Assembly: GCA_031835245.2 (NCBI GenBank)
Contig: JAVKOQ020000021.1
Location: forward strand, 248,001 to 312,000
From: Balamuthia mandrillaris
Lineage: Eukaryota
Direction of reading: 5' to 3'
Length of the DNA stretch: 64,000 nt
The notes below the pieces were generated by a model. The model saw nothing but the letters and a program-made list of their open reading frames with translations, searched no databases and was not told the origin of the DNA. The position numbers were made by a program, and so were the translations under genes. Of the stretch, positions 21,533 to 58,354 are shown piece after piece. Position 1 is the first letter of the stretch. The number at the start of each line of letters is the position of its first letter.

Positions 21533-21871
21533 ATCTCCATTGCTTTTGCAATGGAAAGAACAAGAGACAACCTCGTTTCATGTTTTTCATGGAACAACAC
21601 AGCTGCACAGGTGTATAACACAGTCAATAACAATATTCTGCTCCTCCATTTGGCCCTATTCGGCTGCCTTCCATGGTTCTTCTTCTTGGAAACTCAAGAA
21701 CAACTCAAGGAGAGACTTCCAATGCATGACAACCCACCACACCCAAATGAAGCACCGCGCCCATCCAACTATAAAACACCCACCGGCACTCATCCTCCAA
21801 CTGCCATAACAACAACAACAACCAGCACAAAAACAAGAAGAACAAACCTGCTGACAACAACAACAACAAGG

Positions 21872-22906
21872 ATGAAGCCTGCTCTGATGGTTTGCCTGTG
21901 GTTGGCCTTCTTGGCCGCCACCTCTTTGGCTGGCAGGGCTGATGTCAACTATGGTGGAGGCGATGTGCGCTATGATGGCGATGTCGTCACCTACGACGGC
22001 GGTGATGTCCGTTACGACGGCGGCAACGTGGTGACTTACGACGGTGGGGACATCCGCTATGACGGTGGCAACGTTCGCTACGACGGTGGTGATGTCCGCT
22101 ACGATGGAGGGGATATCCGTTACGATGGAGGGGATGTTCGTTACGATGGCGGCAGCGTGGTCTACGGTGGAGGAGATGTTCGCTACGATGGAGATGACAT
22201 TCGCTACGATGGAGGGGACATCCGTTACGATGGTAATGTGGTGACTTACGACGGTGGTGACATCCGCTACGACGGCTATGATGGAGGCAACGTCTACGAT
22301 GGTGGTGACGTTCGTTACGATGGCGGTGACATCCGCTACGACGGGTATGATGGAGGCTATGTGCGTTACGATGGTGGTGACGTTCGTTACGATGGTGGTG
22401 ACATCCGCTACGACGGATATGATGGAGGCGATGTGCGTTACGATGGCGGTGATGTTCGTTACGATGGCGGCAACGTGGTCTACGATGGTGGCGATGTTCG
22501 CTATGATGGCGGTGATGTTCGTTACGACGGAGGAGACATCCGCTATGATGGTAATGTGGTTACCTACGACGGAGGAGATATCAGTTACGATGGTGGAGAC
22601 ATCCGATACGATGGAGGTGACGTCCGTTATGATGGCGGCAACGTGGTCTATGATGGCGGTGACGTTCGTTACGATGGTGGTGACATCCGTTATGATGGTG
22701 GTGACATCCGTTACGATGGCGGCAACGTGGTCTACGATGGTGGGGACATTGACTACGATGGTTACGATGGGGGAAACGTTGGCTACGACGGCGGCAACGT
22801 GGGCTACGACGGCAACGCCTATGATGGCGATGTGGTGGCCTACAATTCCAACAGCGGCGATAAGGATGCCTCCTCTGCTGCTTCTCCAGCCGCGTTCTGG
22901 CTCTGA
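21872..22906 (+). CDS. Secreted Tyr/Asp/Gly heptapeptide-repeat protein (YDGGD[VI]R)n
   Basis: Signal peptide MKPALMVCLWLAFLAATSLA, then ~43 YDG units with extensive synonymous codon variation, then a short hydrophobic C-terminus. Confidence 0.85.
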   Translation: MKPALMVCLWLAFLAATSLAGRADVNYGGGDVRYDGDVVTYDGGDVRYDGGNVVTYDGGDIRYDGGNVRYDGGDVRYDGGDIRYDGGDVRYDGGSVVYGGGDVRYDGDDIRYDGGDIRYDGNVVTYDGGDIRYDGYDGGNVYDGGDVRYDGGDIRYDGYDGGYVRYDGGDVRYDGGDIRYDGYDGGDVRYDGGDVRYDGGNVVYDGGDVRYDGGDVRYDGGDIRYDGNVVTYDGGDISYDGGDIRYDGGDVRYDGGNVVYDGGDVRYDGGDIRYDGGDIRYDGGNVVYDGGDIDYDGYDGGNVGYDGGNVGYDGNAYDGDVVAYNSNSGDKDASSAASPAAFWL

Positions 22907-26968: not shown

Positions 26969-27859
26969 TTATTTCTTACACTTTACAATCCAAAGAATAA
27001 TAGAGATGGCGATGAGCACGACGGCGATGGAGGGGACGATCACCACGATGAGGAAGAGGTCCAGCGGCAGCTTCCCCACGACCGGGTCGTTGTCCACGTC
27101 GCCCGTCCAGGGCGTCGGGTCCACGTCGCGCTCGTCCAGGCCCTCGTTGACGAGGAGGCCGCAGATGACCGCCCCCAGGAAGAAGATGAGGGAGATGAAG
27201 AACCAGATGACGCCCCAGCAGCGCGGCGTGCAGGGCGTCATCTGGGCGCACTGCGAGGCGTCGCTCTCGTTGACCCTCCGGCGGATGGTGTCGTCATAGA
27301 TGTCAAACGTGCTGAACATGCAGCTCATCACGCCGACGAAGCTGAGGTAGAGCCGCACGCCCAAAGCCCTCTCGTCCACCCCCGTGAAGCAGAGCGCCAG
27401 CAGGCCCAGGAGGATGCAGAGGAAGATGACGCTCACCGTCAGGGCCACCAGGTTCTTCTTGGCCCACCACATGCTGATCAGCACGGCCAGGATCAGGAAG
27501 AGCGAGGCCCACACGCTCAGCACCCTGGAGAAGGAGAGGATGATCATGATGGCGCCCCACACGGCCGACCCCAGGTAGCCCGCCGGCAGGGTGATGCTCC
27601 GTCGGCCGCCTTCCATGTGGGTCACGCCGCCCTCGTCGAGGTTGACCTCTATGCCCTTGATCTTGGCGCAGGTCAGCACGCCGGCCAGCGCGTGGCTGAG
27701 CTCGTGGAGGAGCACCGTGAAGAGCTTCCAGGGGAAGAGGAAGGGGCTGTTCCAGAGGAGCAGGATGATGACGAAGAACGAGCCCGTCATCCCGAGGAAG
27801 ATCCATTGCTCGGCGGTGAGCTCCCCTGAAACGATGCCATCCAACAAAACGGCTGTCAT
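26969..27859 (-). CDS. Peptidase M50B-like intramembrane zinc metalloprotease
   Basis: Motifs HELSH (HExxH), LPAGYLG and DIYDDTIRRRVNESDA, with multiple TM segments. Intronless. Confidence 0.88.
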   Translation of the reverse strand: MTAVLLDGIVSGELTAEQWIFLGMTGSFFVIILLLWNSPFLFPWKLFTVLLHELSHALAGVLTCAKIKGIEVNLDEGGVTHMEGGRRSITLPAGYLGSAVWGAIMIILSFSRVLSVWASLFLILAVLISMWWAKKNLVALTVSVIFLCILLGLLALCFTGVDERALGVRLYLSFVGVMSCMFSTFDIYDDTIRRRVNESDASQCAQMTPCTPRCWGVIWFFISLIFFLGAVICGLLVNEGLDERDVDPTPWTGDVDNDPVVGKLPLDLFLIVVIVPSIAVVLIAISIILWIVKCKK

Positions 27860-28114: not shown

Positions 28115-28764
28115 GACGGGGCAGAGAAGAAAGAGGAAGAGGAGGAAAGCAAAGCCTGGCCCTCCCTTCTCCCATCCTGGGCACGCGCTGAGCTGCTTGG
28201 ACGCGTGGAGTGGCAGCTTCATCGTAAACGGATTGGAAGGGGTTGCTGATTGTTCAGCCAAACTGGGAGAAGCCCCACTCTCTCGATGAGAGCCACTCTC
28301 CAACGAAAAAAGGTGCTTGGACCACCGTTCACCGTCAATAGGTCTGTGGGTGGGCAAAAGCTTGTACCTCAGCAGTTGCGCGGCTGCCTGCCTGTTCCTC
28401 ACTGATGGTGCTCGCTTGGGTTTCACTCTTTTCTTCTTGTAGTAGGTGAGAGGGTGAGCTGGGCAAACCCGGAGGGCAAGGATGAAAGCTTGTTGTCAGA
28501 GGGGGGTGCTGCCGGAAGAAGTGAAGGCGAGACTGCAAAGATTGCAGAGAAGATGTGATGTTTGTGCACAGTTGTTTTTGGAGGCAGAGGCAGCAGCAGG
28601 AGGAGGGAGAGGAAGCAGCAGGAGGAGAAGAAGAAGGGCAAGCAAGGGAAGCGGTGAGGAGGCATTGGGACGAGGGAAGCAGGGTGTGGTGGGAGTTGTG
28701 GTGCTGCAGCCAGAGCTGCTTCCACCGGCCCCTCCCTGCTGCACGTTCCCTTGCACCCAAGTAG
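28115..28764 (+). pseudogene. Scrambled relic of the LRR gene family (5' remnant, internal inversion, intact 3' end)
   Basis: 28120-28185 resembles the LRR gene 5' end. About 28350-28497 is an inverted linker remnant plus one LRR unit. 28497-28764 is nearly identical to 30601-30871. Confidence 0.85.
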
Positions 28765-28984
28765 TTCCTTGTTGTTGTGTTGGGGAAAATTAAAAAAAAA
28801 AAGAAAAGCAAAAGGAGGAATAAAAAGAAAACAGAGGAAAAGGCAAACAACCATCAGCTTCTTGCTCCCGTCGTTGTCTCAAGCTGCTCACTGAGCAGGC
28901 AACCGACGATCCTCGGAGGACAGAGCGTGTAGCAGGGCAGTCATTATTGGCGGCGCAAGAAAGAGGTTTTAAAAGTAACAAAAA

Positions 28985-30871
28985 ATGGAAGCAGCGGCAG
29001 AGAAGAAAGAGGAAGGGGAGGAAAGCCAAGCCCTTCCCCCCCTTCTCCAACGCTTTGCGCACTCCACTGCCTGCGACCTCTCCAACAACAAGTTGAGCGC
29101 CTTGCCGAGGGAGTTTGGCCAGCTCACCTCGCTCACCCGCTGCAACCTCTCCGACAACAAGCTGAGGTCCTTGCCCAAGGAGTTTGGCCTGCTCACCGCT
29201 CTCACCTCCTGTGACCTTGACAAAAACAAGCTGACCACCTTGCCGAAGGAGCTTGCCCAGCTCCGCGCGCTTACCCACCTCGACTTCACCTACAACAAAC
29301 TTTCCTGTTTGCCGAGGGAGTTTGGTGAGCTCACCGCTCTCACCTGCTGTGACCTCTCCTGCAACAGGCTGAGCTCCTTGCCGCAGGAGTTTGGCCAGCT
29401 CTCCGCTCTCACCTCCTGCAACCTCTCCCACAACCAGCTGAGCTCCTTGCCAAGGGAATTTGGCCTGCTCTCCACTCTCACTAAGTGCTATCTCCAAGCC
29501 AACCAGCTGAGCTCCTTGCCGAGGGAGTTTGGCCAGCTCTCCGCTCTCACCTGCTGCAGTCTCTCCTGCAACTATCTGAGCTCCTTGCCGAGGGAGGTTG
29601 GCCAGCTCTCCTCTCTCACCCGCTGCGACCTGTCCTTCAACAAGCTTACGTCCTTGCCGAGGGAGCTTGGCCTGCTCACCTCTCTCACCTCCTGCTACCT
29701 TCACCACAACCAGCTGAGCTGCTTGCCGAGGGAGTTTGGCCAGCTCACTGCTCTCACTCGCTGCAACCTCTCCAAAAACCAGCTGAGCGCCATGCTGAGA
29801 GAGTTTGGTCAACTCACTGCTCTCACTGAGTGCGACCTCTCCCACAACAAGCTTTCATCCTTGCCCTCCGAGTTTGGCCAGCTCACCGCTCTCACTCGAT
29901 ACAAGCTCTCCGACAACAAGCTGAGCTGCTTGCCCAAGGAGTTTGGCCTGCTCACCGCTCTCACCCACTGCGACCTCTCCTACAACCTACTGACCGCCTT
30001 GCCGAGGGAGTTTGGCCTGCTCACCGCTCTCACTAGCTGTGACCTCTCCTGGAATAAGCTGAGGTGCTTGCCGAGGGAGTTTGGCCAGCTCACCGCTCTC
30101 ACCTCCTGCTACCTTCACCACAACCAGCTGAGCTGCTTGCCGAGGGAGTTTGGCCAGCTCTCCACCCTCAACTATTGCAGGTTGAGTGGCAACCCCTTGG
30201 CAGCACTGCCTTGTTCCATGGTTTGGCTTCTTCCCTCCTTGAAAACGTTCTTCCTTCAACCCTTTCAACGGCAAGAAGCACTTCTCCAACAAACAGAAGA
30301 ACGTGAAAAGGAAGAGCAAGAGGAGGAGAAGGAGAAGGGAAAAAAGGAAAGAGAGAAACCCAAGCAAGCACCAGCCACAAGGAACAAGCAGACAGCTGTG
30401 AAAAGCTTGTGGCACTTGAGCGGAGAGGCGGTGCTGAGGAACCAGCTTTTGCCACCTGGCTTGTTGACCGCTGTTCGAGACCCGCCGCCCTTCTCTTGGC
30501 TTTCTTCTTCTCCTCTGAAGGTGGAGAGGACCACAAATCAGCAGCAGCAAGGAACCAAAGAAGAAAGGCAAGAAGGAGAAGAAGGGAGCGAGGAGGTGGG
30601 CAGAGGGGGGGTGCTGCCGGAAGAAGTGAAGGAGAGACTGCAAAGATTGCAGAGAAGATGTGATGTTTGTGCACAGTTGTTTTTGGAGGCAGAGGCAGAG
30701 GCAGAGAAGGAGGGAGAGGAAGCAGCAGGAGGAGAAGAAGAAGGGCAAGCAAGGGAAGTGGTGAGGAGGCATTGGGACGAGGAAAGCGGGGTGTGGTGGG
30801 AGTTGTTGTGTTGCAGCCAGAGCTGCTTCCACCGGCCCCTCCCTGCTGCACGTTCCCTTGCACCCAAGTAG
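28985..30871 (+). CDS. Intronless LRR protein (17 x 23-aa repeats) with BC-box/cullin-box-like and Cys-rich C-terminus
   Basis: Repeat consensus LxxLTxCxLSxNxLxxLPREFGQ. C-terminal motifs SLWHLSGEAV, LPEEVKERL, CDVC and CCSQSC. Confidence 0.92.
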   Translation: MEAAAEKKEEGEESQALPPLLQRFAHSTACDLSNNKLSALPREFGQLTSLTRCNLSDNKLRSLPKEFGLLTALTSCDLDKNKLTTLPKELAQLRALTHLDFTYNKLSCLPREFGELTALTCCDLSCNRLSSLPQEFGQLSALTSCNLSHNQLSSLPREFGLLSTLTKCYLQANQLSSLPREFGQLSALTCCSLSCNYLSSLPREVGQLSSLTRCDLSFNKLTSLPRELGLLTSLTSCYLHHNQLSCLPREFGQLTALTRCNLSKNQLSAMLREFGQLTALTECDLSHNKLSSLPSEFGQLTALTRYKLSDNKLSCLPKEFGLLTALTHCDLSYNLLTALPREFGLLTALTSCDLSWNKLRCLPREFGQLTALTSCYLHHNQLSCLPREFGQLSTLNYCRLSGNPLAALPCSMVWLLPSLKTFFLQPFQRQEALLQQTEEREKEEQEEEKEKGKKEREKPKQAPATRNKQTAVKSLWHLSGEAVLRNQLLPPGLLTAVRDPPPFSWLSSSPLKVERTTNQQQQGTKEERQEGEEGSEEVGRGGVLPEEVKERLQRLQRRCDVCAQLFLEAEAEAEKEGEEAAGGEEEGQAREVVRRHWDEESGVWWELLCCSQSCFHRPLPAARSLAPK

Positions 30872-31526
30872 TTTCTTCTTCTTTTGTTTTTCTTTTTCTA
30901 TCTTTCATTTCTCAACAAATAAAGAAGACAAAAACAACCATTGCTGCCATCTCTGGCAAACGCCTCCGCCACCACTTTTTCTTCTTAAAATAGTAGGACA
31001 TGCAAAGGGCAATCCAGAACGCTGAAGATGCAGTCTTCCATGAACGAATAAAACACATGTGAATCCTCCACCGGACGACCCAGAAGGAAGAAGTTTCAAC
31101 TAGCATCCGTCTCCACTCATGACAACATTGCACTGACCAAGTCATGCTCTGGCACATAGCTACAGAAGCTCACGCAATCCTTCCAAGTGGAGTTGGATCA
31201 ACTGTTCCTCCTTCCACCTCTAGACATCCACGATGGCTTCAACAGGCGGAGGCACAACTCTCACCTCAGCTATGACCCCCCAACCGCTTGACTACTGGAC
31301 TGCTATCGCTCCGCACTGCACAGCACACTTTGCCTTCTCCCCTCATGAGAAGGCTCTGTTTGGCATGAAATCATCTATCGAGCAAGCGCACAACAACATT
31401 CTCCTTAGAAAATCTGCTGTGATACAAACAAGCTTTAAATACTACCAAACTCTCCCACCGTACTTCACTGTGCTCCCTGTTTCCACAGCGTGAACAAAGG
31501 AGAAGGCTATATATATAAAAAAAAAA

Positions 31527-33488
31527 ATGGAGGCAGCAGCAGCAGCGAGGAAAGAGGAGGGGGAGGACCGCACAGCCCTTCCTCCCCTTCTCCAAAGCTT
31601 TGCACACTCCACCCACTGCGACCTCTCCCGCAACGAGCTGACCGCCTTGCCGAGGGAGTTTGGTCGGCTCACCTCTCTCACTCACTGCAACCTCTCCCGC
31701 AACCAGCTGAGCTGCTTGCCGAGGGAGTTTGGCCAGCTCAGCTCTCTCACCCACTGCGACCTCTCCCACAACCAGCTGAGCGCCTTGCCGAGGGAGTTTG
31801 GCCAGCTAGCCTCTCTCACCCACTGCAGCCTCTCCTGCAACCAGCTGAGCTGCTTGCCGAGGGAGTTTGGCCTTCTCACCGCTCTCACTCACTGCGACCT
31901 CCACAATAGCCAGCTGAGCTGCTTGCCGAGGGAGTTTGGCCAGCTCACCTCTCTCACCCGCTGCGACCTCTCCTACGTTAAGCTGAGGTCCTTGCCCTCC
32001 GAGTTTGGCCTGCTCATCGCTCTCACTGACTGCAACCTCTCCTTCAACAAGCTGAGCTGCTTGCCGAGGGAGTTTGGCCAGCTCAGCTCTCTCACCCACT
32101 GCGACCTCTCAAGCTATTACCTGAGCTCCTTGCCAAAGGAGTTTGGTGAGCTCACCGCTCTCACTGACTGCAAGCTCTCCTTCAACAAGCTGACCGCCTT
32201 GCCGAGGGAGTTTGGCCAGCTCTCCGCTCTCACTCGCTGCGGCCTCTCCTGCAACCAGCTGAGCTGCTTGCCGAGGGAGTTTGGCCAGCTCTCCGCTCTC
32301 ACCCGCTGCGGCCTCTCCAGGAACCAGCTGAGCTGTTTGCCGAGGGAGTTTGGCCAGCTCTCCGCTCTCACCTTCTGCGACCTCTTCCACAACCAGCTGA
32401 GCTCCTTGCCGCAGGAGTTTGGCCAGCTCCGCGCTCTCACCCACTGCGACCTCTCCCACAACAAGCTGAGCTGCTTGCCAAAGGAGTTTGGACAGCTCAC
32501 CGCTCTCACTGAGTGCGACTTCTCCTTAAACAAGCTGGGCTGCTTGCCAAGGGAGTTTGGACAGCTCACCGCCCTCACTAGCTGCGACCTCTCCGACAAC
32601 AAGCTTTCATCCTTGCCCTCCGGGTTTGGCCAGCTCACCGCTCTCACTGACTGCAACCTCTCCTTCAATAAGCTCAGCTCCTTGTCGAGGGAGTTTGGCC
32701 AGCTCTCCGCTCTCACCCGCTGCGACCTCTGCAACAACCAACTGAGCTGCTTGCCGAGGGAGTTTGGCCAGCTCACTGCTCTCACTGACTGCGACCTCTC
32801 CAACAACAAGCTGAGCTGCTTGCCGAGGGAGTTTGGCCAGCTGACCACCCTCAACAATTGCAGGTTGAGCGGTAACCCCTTGGCAGCACTGCCTTGTTCC
32901 ATGGTTTGGCTTCTTCCCTCCTTGAAAACGTTCTTGAAGGAGGAGAAGCAGAAGGGAAGGATGGAAAGATTGAAACCCAAGCAAGCACCAGCCACAAGGA
33001 ACAAGCAGGCAGCCGTGAAAAGCTTGTGGCACTTGAGTGGAGAGGCGGTGCTGAGGAACCAGCTTTTGCCACCTGGCTTGTTGCCCGCTGTTCGAGACCC
33101 GCCGCCCTTCTCTTGGCTTTCTTCTTCTCTTCTGAAGGTGGAGAGGACCACAAACCAGCAGCAGCAAGGAACCAAAGAAGAAAGGAAAGAAGAAGAAGGG
33201 AGAGGGGAGGTGGGGGTGGGGGTCCTGCCAGAAGAAGTGAAGGCGAGACTGCAAAGATTGCAAAGGAGATGTGATGTTTGTGCACAGTTGTTTTTGGAGA
33301 CAGAAGCAGAGGTGGAGGAGGAGGGGGAGGAAGAAGCAGCAGGAGAAGAAGAAGGGCAAGCAAGGGAAGCGGTGAGGAGGCATTGGGACAAGGGAAGAAG
33401 GGTGTGGTGGGAGTTGTTGTGTTGCAGCCAGAGCTGCTTCCACCGGCCCCTTCCACATTCCTATTTGCCTCTTCTAACAAATAAATGA
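31527..33488 (+). CDS. Tandem paralogous intronless LRR protein (19 x 23-aa repeats)
   Basis: Same architecture as 28985-30871, with near-identical N- and C-termini. Confidence 0.92.
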   Translation: MEAAAAARKEEGEDRTALPPLLQSFAHSTHCDLSRNELTALPREFGRLTSLTHCNLSRNQLSCLPREFGQLSSLTHCDLSHNQLSALPREFGQLASLTHCSLSCNQLSCLPREFGLLTALTHCDLHNSQLSCLPREFGQLTSLTRCDLSYVKLRSLPSEFGLLIALTDCNLSFNKLSCLPREFGQLSSLTHCDLSSYYLSSLPKEFGELTALTDCKLSFNKLTALPREFGQLSALTRCGLSCNQLSCLPREFGQLSALTRCGLSRNQLSCLPREFGQLSALTFCDLFHNQLSSLPQEFGQLRALTHCDLSHNKLSCLPKEFGQLTALTECDFSLNKLGCLPREFGQLTALTSCDLSDNKLSSLPSGFGQLTALTDCNLSFNKLSSLSREFGQLSALTRCDLCNNQLSCLPREFGQLTALTDCDLSNNKLSCLPREFGQLTTLNNCRLSGNPLAALPCSMVWLLPSLKTFLKEEKQKGRMERLKPKQAPATRNKQAAVKSLWHLSGEAVLRNQLLPPGLLPAVRDPPPFSWLSSSLLKVERTTNQQQQGTKEERKEEEGRGEVGVGVLPEEVKARLQRLQRRCDVCAQLFLETEAEVEEEGEEEAAGEEEGQAREAVRRHWDKGRRVWWELLCCSQSCFHRPLPHSYLPLLTNK

Positions 33489-54149: not shown

Positions 54150-57100
54150 CTATGTGTTACATTGTCCGGTTGAAGTGTGAGAAAGATAACCGGAGAGCCG
54201 TTGGCAAAGGTCCTTTTGATGGCGCAAGTCGATACCGAATGGGATGGTGGATGCCTTGTACACGAAAAAGTATCGGGTGGTCACCAAATGTTCGTTCTGT
54301 ACAACGTAATGAGGATTCGGTTGTCCTTCTAAACTTGGATGTTTCACAACTGTTTTTGTTTCGTTATTAATGAAAGGAGAAGAAAGAACGAAAGGAAGGT
54401 GAAGAAGAAAAATCTTACTTTCACAAAGGGCAATCGCGTGAAAGCTGCCATTGCCGAGAATGGTCTGAGGCCAGGGCACCGCCGAGCATGGACAGTAGAG
54501 ACGAGATGTGTTGATGGATGGAGAGAGATAAATGCCGGCACCAAACACAGCACCTTTCGACATCAACGCAGTGTTTGTCATGTTTTGTAATCCCACACGA
54601 AGGATTGCATGCCTTTCATTTGTTTTGGTCGCAATTGAAAATAAGAAGAATAGGATAAGTTGTTAAGTGGAAAGTAGAGGAGAACAAAAGTAAGCACTAA
54701 CCAATTCTCAAGAGCAGAGCCGTGGAAAGCCCAAACGGAGCCATATTTCTTCTTGAGAGCTTGGAACTTCGCTTCCTTCTCTGGAGTCTTACATAGCAAC
54801 ACAAATTGATGTGGCGTTTGCATCTGGTCTATAAACTGCATTTAATGCGTCAGAGAACAGAGCGAGAGAAAGAGAGAGAGAAAGAGAAGCAGAAACAGTA
54901 CCCCATTTTCTGGAATTTTTCTCAGATGAGATCGGTTCGTGCTGAGTATCCACCGTAACAAGCGATAGAGAAGCGGATGCTTCTCTTGCTCTAACTTTTG
55001 TCGGAGTCCTTGTTCTCCATTTTGTGTCGCCATATCTCTCATTTCTTCTACCGATGGCGTCAGTTGAAGCACTTTTCTCAGTGCCTCTATATCCTTTCCT
55101 CGTTTAGGGTCTTCCTCCTTGTCTTTAATAGCTGTTTCGTTCTCTTCTTTTGTGGTTGGAAGAAGAAAGTCCGTTGGGAAGGGAGCAAGGAGATAAGGCC
55201 AACGTTCGGATTGAGCAGCAGCAGAGGCGATGCTTATCATCAGATCAACGTAATGTAAATCATGGTTGAGTTGAGAGGAAATGGAGGAACTGCCCAGCCC
55301 CAATTCCGTGAGTCGGAACAGACATTCTTCGCGAGCACAGGTAACCGGTTTTAGTCCACTTTGTTGGAACAATGAAAGAGGAAGAAAGACCGAAGACAGA
55401 CAAAAGATAGAGAGAAAGAAGACACAAAGAACACGAAGCAGAACACGAAGAATGTCAGTTTTTACGGTGATACAAACAAACAGAAAAGAGAGTATAACAA
55501 ACCTGAAAGGAAGTTTTCTGTCACAAACAACACAGTGGTCCATGCAATTGCGCAATCGAAGAATGACATAACACATAAGAGTGGCTAAAAGATTGGCAGA
55601 TGCTCGTTCGTTATTTGAACAAAACTTGTTCAAGAGATGCTGCACCGAAGCGTCCTGCAGTTCGTTTTTCCTCGTTTCTTCTTTTTCTGCGTCTTGGAGC
55701 GCGGGAGTTGATGAAGGTGAATTTGTAGCAGATTCCATTCTCGCTTTGGCTTTCCACGGATTGTTCTCCTCTTTATCCAAAGCATAAGCGCTGTTGAGCT
55801 GATCGTATCCGTTATCCAAAAGAAACCGTATGCCTCTCGTTTTCTTCAACAAACTCTTTTGCTCTTTTTCTTTCTCCAAAAACGAAGACCCAAAACGATT
55901 TTCTTCTTCCTTGCCGTTGTTCTTTGCTGAAGATTCCATATTGGAGAAGAAGAAAGCAGGCCATGCTTTGTTAAGGAACCGCCGAATGATTTGTTGCAAT
56001 TGTGTCTTCATTCCAAACTCTTTCTTCAAAGATGTGGTCTGACTTACTTCAATGAGTGGAGGAGGCGGAGGCGTTGATGCCTTACTATCATCTTGTTGAG
56101 AGAAATAATAACCGATGAAAGAGAGAGTGATGGCGATGGGCTGATTTTGACAGATGCCTAAAGCATCCGCAGTTGCTGCATTCATCCAACTTACATCCAG
56201 AAACAGAACAACTTCGTTGGATTCTCTCAAATACGTTATCGAACTGTTTTAGCACAAAAAGTTAATAAAAGAAGAGAGGGAGAGGAAGAGAGAGAGAGAG
56301 AGAGAAAGAAAGAAGAGAAAAGAGAAAAGAGAAAAGAGAGAAGAGAGAAGAGAGAACTGACTTGTAACCGAATATCTGCTGAACCTGATAAACATGTTGC
56401 TCCAACAAATCATCTTCATCTCTTACTATGAACAAGGAATAAGATCCGTCGTCTTCGTCCTCCTCTTCCGCTTCCTCATCCTCATCTGCTCCTTTCGAGC
56501 GAGCCGGTGAAAAGAGAACAGACGATTTTGGAGACCAGAGTTTGCTCCGCTGAATCAAAATGCACTCTTCCTCTTCATCATCGTCCTCATCTTCTTCATC
56601 TTTTCTTTCTTCTTTATCTTTTCGTGATAATGGAGTACCTAAACTGGAAGCCCACAAGTTGGCCATCGTCATGAACATAAGGCTTCCTTTTGCTAGCCTT
56701 CGTCGCCGCTCCTCGGAAGAACTGTTCGACGTTACAAACGAAGAACTTAACATGTTGTTATTGTTGCAACGTTTGTCATAGTCTGTTTTTTAATATGTTG
56801 GGTTACAGAAAAATAACAAAGAAAACGAGAATAAGAACGTACTTATGATGAAGAAGTGAACGATGTCAAGCAAAGCAATGAAGCGTTGAGAAGCATAGCG
56901 ATTGCCATGACGCAGAAATTCCTGTCCTAAAGCTGCTGCTCTCCTCGAAGAGGAGCCAGAAGAAGAGGAAGGAACGAGAGTAACGCTTGGTCGTTCTCGT
57001 GGATAACGATCTGGCACGTGAATCGCAAAGCAAAAACGAGGCTTCGTTTGAGCTGGTTCGTTGGTGGTCGATGTCCCTAAACTTAGTAATAGGGTTCTTT

Positions 57101-58354
57101 GCTCACGGTTCCATTCCAAAGCTTCAACACAAGTGTTGGCGTTCTCGTCGTCGTCGTCCATCGCGAATATTTGTTGCAGGTTCTTGATCTCTTTTTCCAA
57201 ACGAATGTTTCTCTCTTTGTTGATTCGTTCTAACAAAGCTCTTTCTTCATCTTGTTTCTCCTCTATTTCTTTCTTTTCTTCTTCGCATGCCTTGTGTTCC
57301 CTTTTGTGCTGTTCTGTTGAGGAAGTGGTGTTGAAACGTTCTGTTTGTTTCTTCTGTTCTGCTCCTTGTTCGGGTTCAGCTTTCTGTTCGTTGCAGTGCA
57401 AGTTACTATGCGTAAGGGCGATTCCACCTCTCGTAAGATGAGTGAAGAGTTTTGCTGTTCCCGACAAAATATCATTTTCATAGCGAGTGTTGGTTTGTTC
57501 CTCCGTCATTTGTTCCTTGGATGCTCTTTCCTCCTCTTCTTCGCCTCCTTTTCGCTCGGTTGATGGTGAAACTAAGTTCTTATCTTGGTGGAGAACAGCT
57601 GTTGCTGAAGGCGTAGATTTGGTTTTGGTTGTGACGAGACTGCCTCTGATGCGTATCTGTCCGGTGACTTTGCTGCGAGAGGAGCGTTTGAGGAGGGTGT
57701 GCCATTCGTCTTTGCAGTCGTGCCCATAAAAGTAACTCATCGGTAACGAGAGTTGACCCAAGAAGTTGTTCCTATAAGTCACATATGAGAACGAAAGAGA
57801 AGAGAGCAGCATAAGAGAGAGGAGAAGCAGAGAGGCAGAGAAGTCAGGAGAAAAAGAAGAGAGCAGAGAGGTGAAATGACTTGGAGAGATGGCGGTATTG
57901 TTTGACGACTATGTGAAGATATTCGTCCATGCTTTTGGGTGAGCTGGTGAGGGACCCAAAAGAAAGAGAGAGAGAGAAAGAAAAGAATTCAGTTAGGAGC
58001 CAAAAAAAACTGGAAGCACCAAAATAACCTACAAAAAATAACGGTCCTCCCAGCGAATGCCCTTTTCTTGCTCTTCTTTGCGAACTTGCATCATGTCCCT
58101 CGTTCTGGCCTTTTGTTTTCCTCCCAGAGAAAACGAACAGTACACATAGCATGAGCCTGTAAAGCATGTATTATTTATTTTTGTTTTTGTGGGTAAAAAA
58201 AATTGGAACAAAAAGAGCAGGAAAGTGGGTGACCTGAGCTTAAGGCATGTTCTCTACGTGACCATCGTAAACAAATGTCTTTGAGTTCGATAGAACTCAC
58301 ACACAAGATGCTGGCTGGTGGTAATGCTCCACTCAACGTTCTTCTCCTCTCCAT
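54150..58354 (-). CDS. PARP6/8/16-like mono-ADP-ribosyltransferase with N-terminal C2 and RWD/UBC-like regions; multi-exon
   Basis: ART motifs AFHGSALENW|HAILRVGL, GAVFGAGIYLS, IALCE and YVVQNEHLVTTRYFFV. Cys cluster CMDHCVVCD..CAREEC. C2-like LGQLSLP..EWHTL..KVTGQIRI. RWD/UBC-like VPDRYPRERP. Confidence 0.82.

Follow-up and report, generated by a model that had tools for sequence, protein, structure and literature searches.

LRRC58, the receptor through which the cullin-RING ligases CRL2 and CRL5 take up CDO1, is built of leucine-rich repeats (LRRs), a BC-box, a CUL2-box, a zinc loop and a two-stranded sheet (PMC13156300), an order of parts also given in bioRxiv 2025.09.23.678073 and PMC12589099. 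Its LRRs number nine, and the one substrate known for it co-evolves with it (PMC13156300, PMC12589099). Here we describe two tandem LRR genes, gene 1 and gene 2, in the amoeba Balamuthia mandrillaris, in a stretch of 64,000 nucleotides (contig JAVKOQ020000021.1, positions 248,001 to 312,000; the window). Their predicted proteins follow the LRRC58 order of parts, with a similar spacing between the cullin box and the first cysteine, but differ from LRRC58 in that they belong to a multigene family likely under positive selection and have acidic inserts and as many as 19 homogenised repeats. We read them as tandem members of an expanded LRR family in which two positions of the binding face are likely under selection and the predicted role of the tail is to recruit an Elongin BC-cullin ligase, with the degradation of foreign proteins as the likely outcome; for this reading as a whole we estimate a probability of roughly one half.

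In our best reading, the family resembles the F-box expansions of nematodes rather than variable lymphocyte receptors (VLRs) or NLRs. The Caenorhabditis F-box genes likewise show tandem birth and death, a conserved cullin-recruiting part and a positively selected substrate-binding part (PMC8665587). These proposed innate-immune adaptors of Skp1-Cul1-F-box (SCF) ligases differ in using an F-box, Skp1 and Cul1 instead of a BC-box and Elongin, in having no homogenised repeat array and in belonging to a multicellular host. In the LRR-ROCO and LRR-kinase genes of Ectocarpus, a eukaryote that is neither animal nor plant, repeats are likewise shuffled and concave LRR residues positively selected (PMC3341825). 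There each exon encodes one repeat and the effector is a GTPase or a kinase, whereas here a single uninterrupted open reading frame (ORF) carries a predicted ligase-recruiting tail. Among fungal NLRs, the repeats with high internal conservation are WD40, TPR and ANK repeats. These NLRs (PMC10197012) have in common with the family described here near-identical repeats that evolve in concert and are shuffled both inside a gene and from gene to gene. Fungal NLRs contain a nucleotide-binding domain, of which there is none here. The mammalian PRAME family also combines LRRs, tandem expansion and positive selection, with a different LRR class and a germ-line role. One member, PRAMEF12, has a BC-box and a CUL2-box too, but at the N-terminus (residues 9-45; PMC13061254). 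The F-box and BTB effectors of Parachlamydiaceae are expanded ubiquitination adaptors as well (PMC4209131), but are bacterial, secreted and on the opposite side of the conflict, and share no tail with the family.

A preliminary description of the window, made from the sequence alone, had compared the arrays with lamprey VLRs and plant NLRs. Selection on concave residues is indeed common to NLRs, LRR-ROCOs and the present genes, here at codons 5 and 10 only; beyond this the analogy is superficial, with no NB-ARC or ROC-COR domain, no anchor and no apparent cassettes. A hydropathy scan showed neither the signal peptide nor the membrane anchor of VLRs, and a complete array lies in the genome, its pieces matched by contigs (not single-molecule reads) of four samples.

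Variation, selection and exchange in the repeat arrays

Both genes are intronless, uninterrupted ORFs (28985-30871 and 31527-33488), laid out as follows.

28985..30871, + strand: gene 1, 628 aa, with a short acidic N-terminus, 17 LRR units and a conserved tail
29057..30229, + strand: gene 1 LRR array, 17 x 69 bp, each unit hypervariable at codons 5 and 10
31527..33488, + strand: gene 2, 653 aa, with 19 LRR units and a tail of the gene 1 type minus 22 aa (deletion)
31602..32912, + strand: gene 2 LRR array, 19 x 69 bp, core Asn lost in units 5, 6 and 8

The repeat unit measures 23 aa (69 bp) throughout and stays in register; the counts of 17 and 19, which agree with the preliminary description, include the first and last cap units. 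An N-terminal LRR solenoid is supported by a Pfam LRR_8 match, and AlphaFold2 (AF2) predicts a SHOC2-like fold with a pLDDT of mostly 80-98 over the array. Foldseek searches with both models returned LRR folds only and were uninformative for the low-confidence tail. In units 5, 6 and 8 of gene 2 (31878-32153), S, V and Y stand in place of the ladder Asn, and the solenoid may be bent or weakened as a result. The termini, previously called almost identical, are less alike than that: the N-termini agree in 120 of 141 nt (85%) and the tails in 588 of 638 aligned nt (92%), with a 22-residue gap in gene 2. Between the two tails, the proportion of nonsynonymous differences (pN) is 0.073 and that of synonymous differences (pS) 0.148.

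Variation was computed over the 32 internal units of both genes (17 + 19 units with caps), among which pS is 0.23 overall. Codon 5, for the residue before the strand Cys, encodes eight amino acids (pN 0.61), and codon 10, for the residue before Asn, encodes 12 (pN 0.62). The gene 1 residues at the latter position had been listed as N,D,K,Y,C,H,A,C,F,H,K,H,D,Y,W,H,G, and the list is exact. Hypervariability had been ascribed to the concave positions in general, but codons 7 and 9 are ordinary (pN 0.35, no higher than the 0.20-0.39 of exposed positions elsewhere) and codon 4 is invariant, so that hypervariability is confined to codons 5 and 10 rather than spread evenly over the repeat. Scaffold codons are homogeneous (TTG in 31/32, TTT in 29/32 and GAG in 30/32 units); their conservation at synonymous sites, also proposed before, is only partial given the pS of 0.23. 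In LRR proteins, the positions that correspond to codons 5 and 10 face the ligand. For the LRRs of Ectocarpus ROCO proteins, ligand-facing concave positions are likewise stated (PMC3341825). In the AF2 models, positions 5-7 lie on the beta-strand; variable position 5 is at the strand start, while position 10 falls in the loop that follows. Codons 5 and 10 are also the most variable ones in 21 repeats from four other paralogues, a pattern that is not fully independent because these paralogues share ancestry.

A maximum-likelihood (ML) codon model estimated the ratio of nonsynonymous to synonymous rates (omega) at 0.13-0.21 for core sites, 0.8-1.5 for other exposed sites and 1.55-3.1 for the concave class (positions 4, 5, 7, 9 and 10), with site values of 3-6 at codon 5 and 4-10 at codon 10 in the repeats of both genes. 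Two results weaken this test. With the full tree, the excess of the concave class over the other exposed sites falls short of significance (p 0.07-0.11), and the test is inflated and unsafe under gene conversion, because neutral conversion simulations reach the observed scores, 7 of 166 matching both site scores and 19 of 166 giving a class omega of at least 1.55 (star-tree simulations: 0/83 and 1/83). Firmer evidence comes from statistics that need no tree. Neutral simulations with conversion and codon bias numbered 1100, of which 798 were kept at a pS of 0.15-0.32; in none of these did a site accumulate 12 amino acids, and in seven pN was 0.61 or higher at two sites. Under a star model, two such sites occurred in 0/400 runs and 12 amino acids in 5/400. 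When neutral per-base rates were allowed to vary strongly (gamma), the full pattern appeared in 0-4% of runs (56/9754, 340/8593, 0/1450 and 2/1478).

These figures bear on the possibility of mostly neutral birth and death, in which unequal crossing-over alters repeat number, unconstrained positions drift and some sites mutate faster. Such a process would accommodate the omega near 1 at the other exposed sites, the disrupted third copy described below, the truncated relatives and the low RNA level, as well as the up to 4% of rate-heterogeneous neutral runs that give the pattern and the 4-5% false positives of the ML test under conversion. The loss of the core Asn in three units of gene 2 and the several annotated relatives that lack LRRs or the tail end also fit some decay, and count against our reading. 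Neutrality accords poorly, however, with the hot codons themselves, whose third position stays C in 28/32 units (codon 5) and 26/32 units (codon 10) while the first two positions are scrambled. Furthermore, both hot sites are among the four concave positions out of 11 free ones, the same two lead in other paralogues, and both genes keep an open frame of 1.9 kb whose core is under purifying selection. We therefore regard a mostly neutral origin as improbable. Positive selection at codons 5 and 10 is, on these models, very likely, which narrows the earlier proposal of diversifying selection on the predicted binding face to two positions, with the other exposed sites near neutrality.

It also appears likely, if slightly less so, that paralogues exchange repeat segments with one another and internally. 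Units differ at 14.7 of 69 nt between the genes vs. 16.4 and 12.8 within them, and so are equally alike in both comparisons; nearest-neighbour units are non-collinear (gene 1 units 10 and 16 differ at a single nt), and in a PHI-like test compatibility is higher among nearby sites than among distant ones (p 0.014-0.051 in three settings). Contigs from public runs, compared on the best 32 of 3346 matching pieces, add a view across strains. Short-read contigs of four runs match long pieces of the locus at 0 differences, including 788 nt from the intergenic region into gene 2, so that the locus is real and not an assembly artefact. Run X6 is elsewhere identical to the window in several long pieces. 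One of its contigs has the gene 1 tail unchanged over 268 nt, but the adjacent last internal repeat (30080-30161) differs at 13 of 82 nt, making it a candidate for a swapped repeat or else a very recent paralogue. In the more distant sample X3, two array pieces differ at 1/246 and 0/164 nt, below the level in mostly intergenic DNA of the same sample (seven substitutions and one gap in 831 nt); a third piece, which may be a paralogue, has 19 differences in 206 nt. The repeat-level polymorphism that the preliminary description had proposed to look for has a candidate in the X6 repeat; most array pieces are the same or nearly the same between strains, which weighs against fast turnover and to that extent against a rapidly diversifying repertoire.

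The same identity between strains gives no sign of somatic hypermutation, and the movement of repeats fits ordinary germ-line unequal crossing-over and conversion rather than a somatic diversifier. A dedicated mechanism that rewrites the variable codons, either like a diversity-generating retroelement (DGR) or by VLR-like somatic assembly, could account for variable codons that are mostly NNC. C-ending codons are, however, the array-wide norm (54% C3, 83% GC at third positions), and the first positions of codon 10 are not adenine-dominated (T13, C8, A7, G4). Together with third positions that stay C, this speaks against both a local hot spot and a DGR; long array pieces are moreover matched by contigs from four samples, and no reverse transcriptase was found among the 18 window ORFs scanned. 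We consider such a diversifier highly improbable, and a DGR mechanism proper was rejected, as the variation is not adenine-specific.

The conserved tail and its predicted ligase link

Behind the last LRR, both proteins continue into the tail, in which the following features were recognised with the BC-box consensus ([TSP]Lxxx[CAS]xxx-hydrophobic) and the Cul2-box consensus of PMC13342108.

30404..30433, + strand: gene 1 BC-box-like motif SLWHLSGEAV, residues 474-483
30449..30475, + strand: gene 1 first Cul2-box-like match LPPGLLTAV, residues 489-497
30614..30670, + strand: gene 1 second Cul2-box-like match LPEEVKERL (544-552), then CDVC (559-562)
30758..30826, + strand: gene 1 predicted beta-hairpin, residues 592-610, low confidence, ending in LLCCSQSC (second cysteine pair)
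33021..33050, + strand: gene 2 BC-box-like motif
33225..33281, + strand: gene 2 Cul2-box-like LPEEVKARL and CDVC
33414..33437, + strand: gene 2 LLCCSQSC

The resulting order, in the sequences of gene 1, is SLWHLSGEAV, LPPGLLTAV, an insert, LPEEVKERL, CDVC, an acidic insert, the predicted hairpin and CCSQSC, with two candidate Cul2-box-like motifs. Among 13 family proteins, the BC-box consensus is matched in 12, at least one Cul2-box match follows it in 11 and stands directly before the CxxC in eight, both cysteine pairs are present in nine, and the whole pattern is found in seven. It occurs in 0/117 other LRR proteins and 0/5000 shuffled tails; these two figures are post hoc, as the pattern was defined after inspection of the family.

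The best full-length matches of the genes are NCBI-named Balamuthia mandrillaris proteins, in line with the protist host assumed earlier, and so are the only three matches to residues 400-628. A tail profile added eight more Balamuthia paralogues and an exhaustive search a twelfth, a number that is a lower bound because the searches collapse similar sequences (the first two at 90% identity, the third at 50%). In each of two DNA runs, nine contigs continue past the end of the tail into other sequence. Truncation or absence of the LRRs is seen in several annotated members. Searched with HMMER against 1.84 billion proteins, the tail profile had 11 matches: nine were Balamuthia members of the family, one was P0133, and one was a repeat protein without relation to them (P0134, rejected as a homologue). 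P0133, encoded on a 621-bp environmental ENA contig, is matched in the C-terminal half only (E 6e-7); its called protein has no LRR, yet it carries a canonical Cys-type BC-box at the equivalent place and both cysteine pairs. It shows that the predicted tail module exists beyond the annotated Balamuthia set. Scans for related loci in metagenome and viral contigs gave 525 and 12 pattern matches, none of them confirmed, and Pfam assigned only LRR families to the family, with no NB-ARC, NACHT or ROC-COR domain. Neochlamydia LRR proteins are among the repeat matches and do not share the tail.

From the order of these motifs and the likeness to LRRC58, the tail is probably a BC-box/cullin-box module, i.e. 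a putative ligase adaptor. The family is predicted to work like LRRC58 but is not classed as a member, because the tail has no detectable sequence homology to it. An Atlas feature search with P0001 residues 405-628 placed clusters of LRRC28, LRRC69 and LRRC58 at 0.84-0.89, and for LRRC28 and LRRC69 this search is the only source of likeness.

Several results count against the adaptor prediction. The HMMER tail search, at E values up to 0.001, contained no LRRC58, LRRC28, LRRC69 or SOCS-box protein. Single motifs arise by chance in 522 (BC-box) and 566 of 5000 shuffled tails (~10-11%), the tail models have a pLDDT below 50, the predicted hairpin included, and a 55-aa insert parts the BC-box from the second Cul-box-like motif; P0126 lacks this insert and approaches LRRC58 in compactness. 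Atlas scores below 0.9 serve only as a lead, and the last LRR may account for them; the same search with P0003 residues 290-469 had no usable match. PDB and Pfam searches with the tail yielded no BC-box or SOCS-box match, and the PDB sequence matches were due to chance; the Pfam blank is a weak negative, since InterPro has no BC-CUL2-box model (PMC13061254). In addition, Cul2/5-Elongin complexes have been argued to be animal-specific in PMC2785787, whose main text is silent on Amoebozoa, and a Dictyostelium review (PMC9108976) lists cullins like CUL1, CUL3 and CUL4 with elongin unmentioned.

These points lend weight to a different reading of the tail, according to which the proteins are positively selected, repeat-shuffling binders whose zinc-like tail signals, oligomerises or acts as a scaffold instead of recruiting a ligase. 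The evidence for selection holds regardless of how the tail is read, the motifs are short, and no sequence link leads to LRRC58 or SOCS-box proteins. The LRRC58-like order and spacing of the motifs, the canonical BC-box retained by the distant homologue P0133 and the LRRC28, LRRC58 and LRRC69 clusters among the Atlas matches speak for a ligase adaptor instead, and we think a non-ligase tail unlikely.

Expression, the third copy and neighbouring genes

Both proteins are supported as cytosolic. A hydropathy scan found no strongly hydrophobic segment, with a maximal Kyte-Doolittle 19-mer score of 1.39 and 1.45 and at most 0.19 in the first 38 aa, as expected from the earlier statement that a signal peptide and a transmembrane segment are missing. 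RNA was searched in three runs of one study, at 3-5% of each. The 12, 10 and 4 reads obtained all fall within 30161-30880, the tail, with none in 30881-31600, and assign a low level of transcription to the family, not specifically to genes 1 and 2. The genes are therefore not untranscribed as a family, but most reads are partial fits (8/12, 10/10 and 4/4) that may derive from paralogues and come from a single study, which counts against our reading.

Directly upstream of gene 1 lies a disrupted third copy, which the preliminary description had overlooked together with the tail motifs and the ubiquitin-ligase effector step.

28120..28781, strand not assigned: disrupted third copy, no LRR array left, internal inversion
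28120-28172, + strand: 5' piece of the third copy
about 28353-28504, - strand: inverted cap and tail pieces
28497-28781, + strand: tail end, 94% identity to gene 1

The flanking genes are unrelated eukaryotic genes according to an ORF scan of the window. A Peptidase M50B-like gene (26969-27859, - strand) is located directly upstream of the LRR cluster and divergent to it. Farther away, two neighbouring ORFs (54842-56185 and 56790-57812, - strand) have an ARTD15 N-terminal (PARP16-like) domain and an RWD domain. In the ORF at 21551-22906 (+ strand), whose translation likely starts near its residue 109, a stretch resembling a signal peptide precedes ~40 heptads of the form YDGGD(V/I)R; the product is probably a secreted or surface repeat protein.

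Possible targets and implications

In the mechanism that we propose, duplication and repeat exchange would build the arrays from a shared pool of repeats, and selection would diversify two binding positions of the LRR units. Each member would then likely bind a different, probably foreign, cytosolic protein, which the fixed tail would pass to an Elongin-cullin ligase and then to the proteasome. Granting the rest of this reading, proteins of intracellular bacteria or viruses are somewhat favoured as targets, because of the analogy with Caenorhabditis F-box genes, fungal NLR repeats and Ectocarpus ROCOs; the recognition of bacteria or giant viruses, as suggested in the preliminary description, remains inference, and it counts against it that no evidence here names a target. 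The need of amoebae for microbial recognition has been described for Acanthamoeba (PMC4053784).

Elongin-cullin adaptors might instead diversify against internal targets, such as selfish elements, fast-evolving host families or stage-specific proteins. The motif evidence is equally applicable to them, the LRRC58 substrate is endogenous (PMC12589099), and Caenorhabditis F-box paralogues are expressed stage-specifically (PMC8665587). We judge this to be rather improbable, as it has no direct evidence and as host-parasite conflict is what usually leaves strong selection on a binding face together with the birth and death of genes (PMC8665587, PMC10197012, PMC3341825). CDO1 as the substrate, or a role in cysteine regulation, is unlikely for a diversifying family.

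Hypervariable LRR arrays of protists and diversifying ligase adaptors are each already known; an amoebozoan BC-box family combining both was not found in the literature searched, including the main texts of PMC10471605 and PMC8569187 on the Balamuthia genome and transcriptome. The most far-reaching interpretation is an amoeba immune repertoire derived from an LRRC58-like adaptor, with dozens of paralogues and one pool of 69-bp repeats that is swapped between genes and strains and selected at two positions to recognise and destroy bacterial or giant-virus proteins. We advance it tentatively, as a possibility somewhat short of even odds; if true, it would place Elongin BC-cullin adaptors in Amoebozoa. 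Returning to the foreign-protein reading preferred here, the family joins homogenised, shuffled repeats, as in fungal NLRs and brown-algal ROCOs, with expanded ligase adaptors, as in the nematode F-box genes. Little is known of how free-living amoebae detect and eliminate bacteria and viruses inside their cells, and this LRR family offers candidate receptors with a built-in effector step, degradation.

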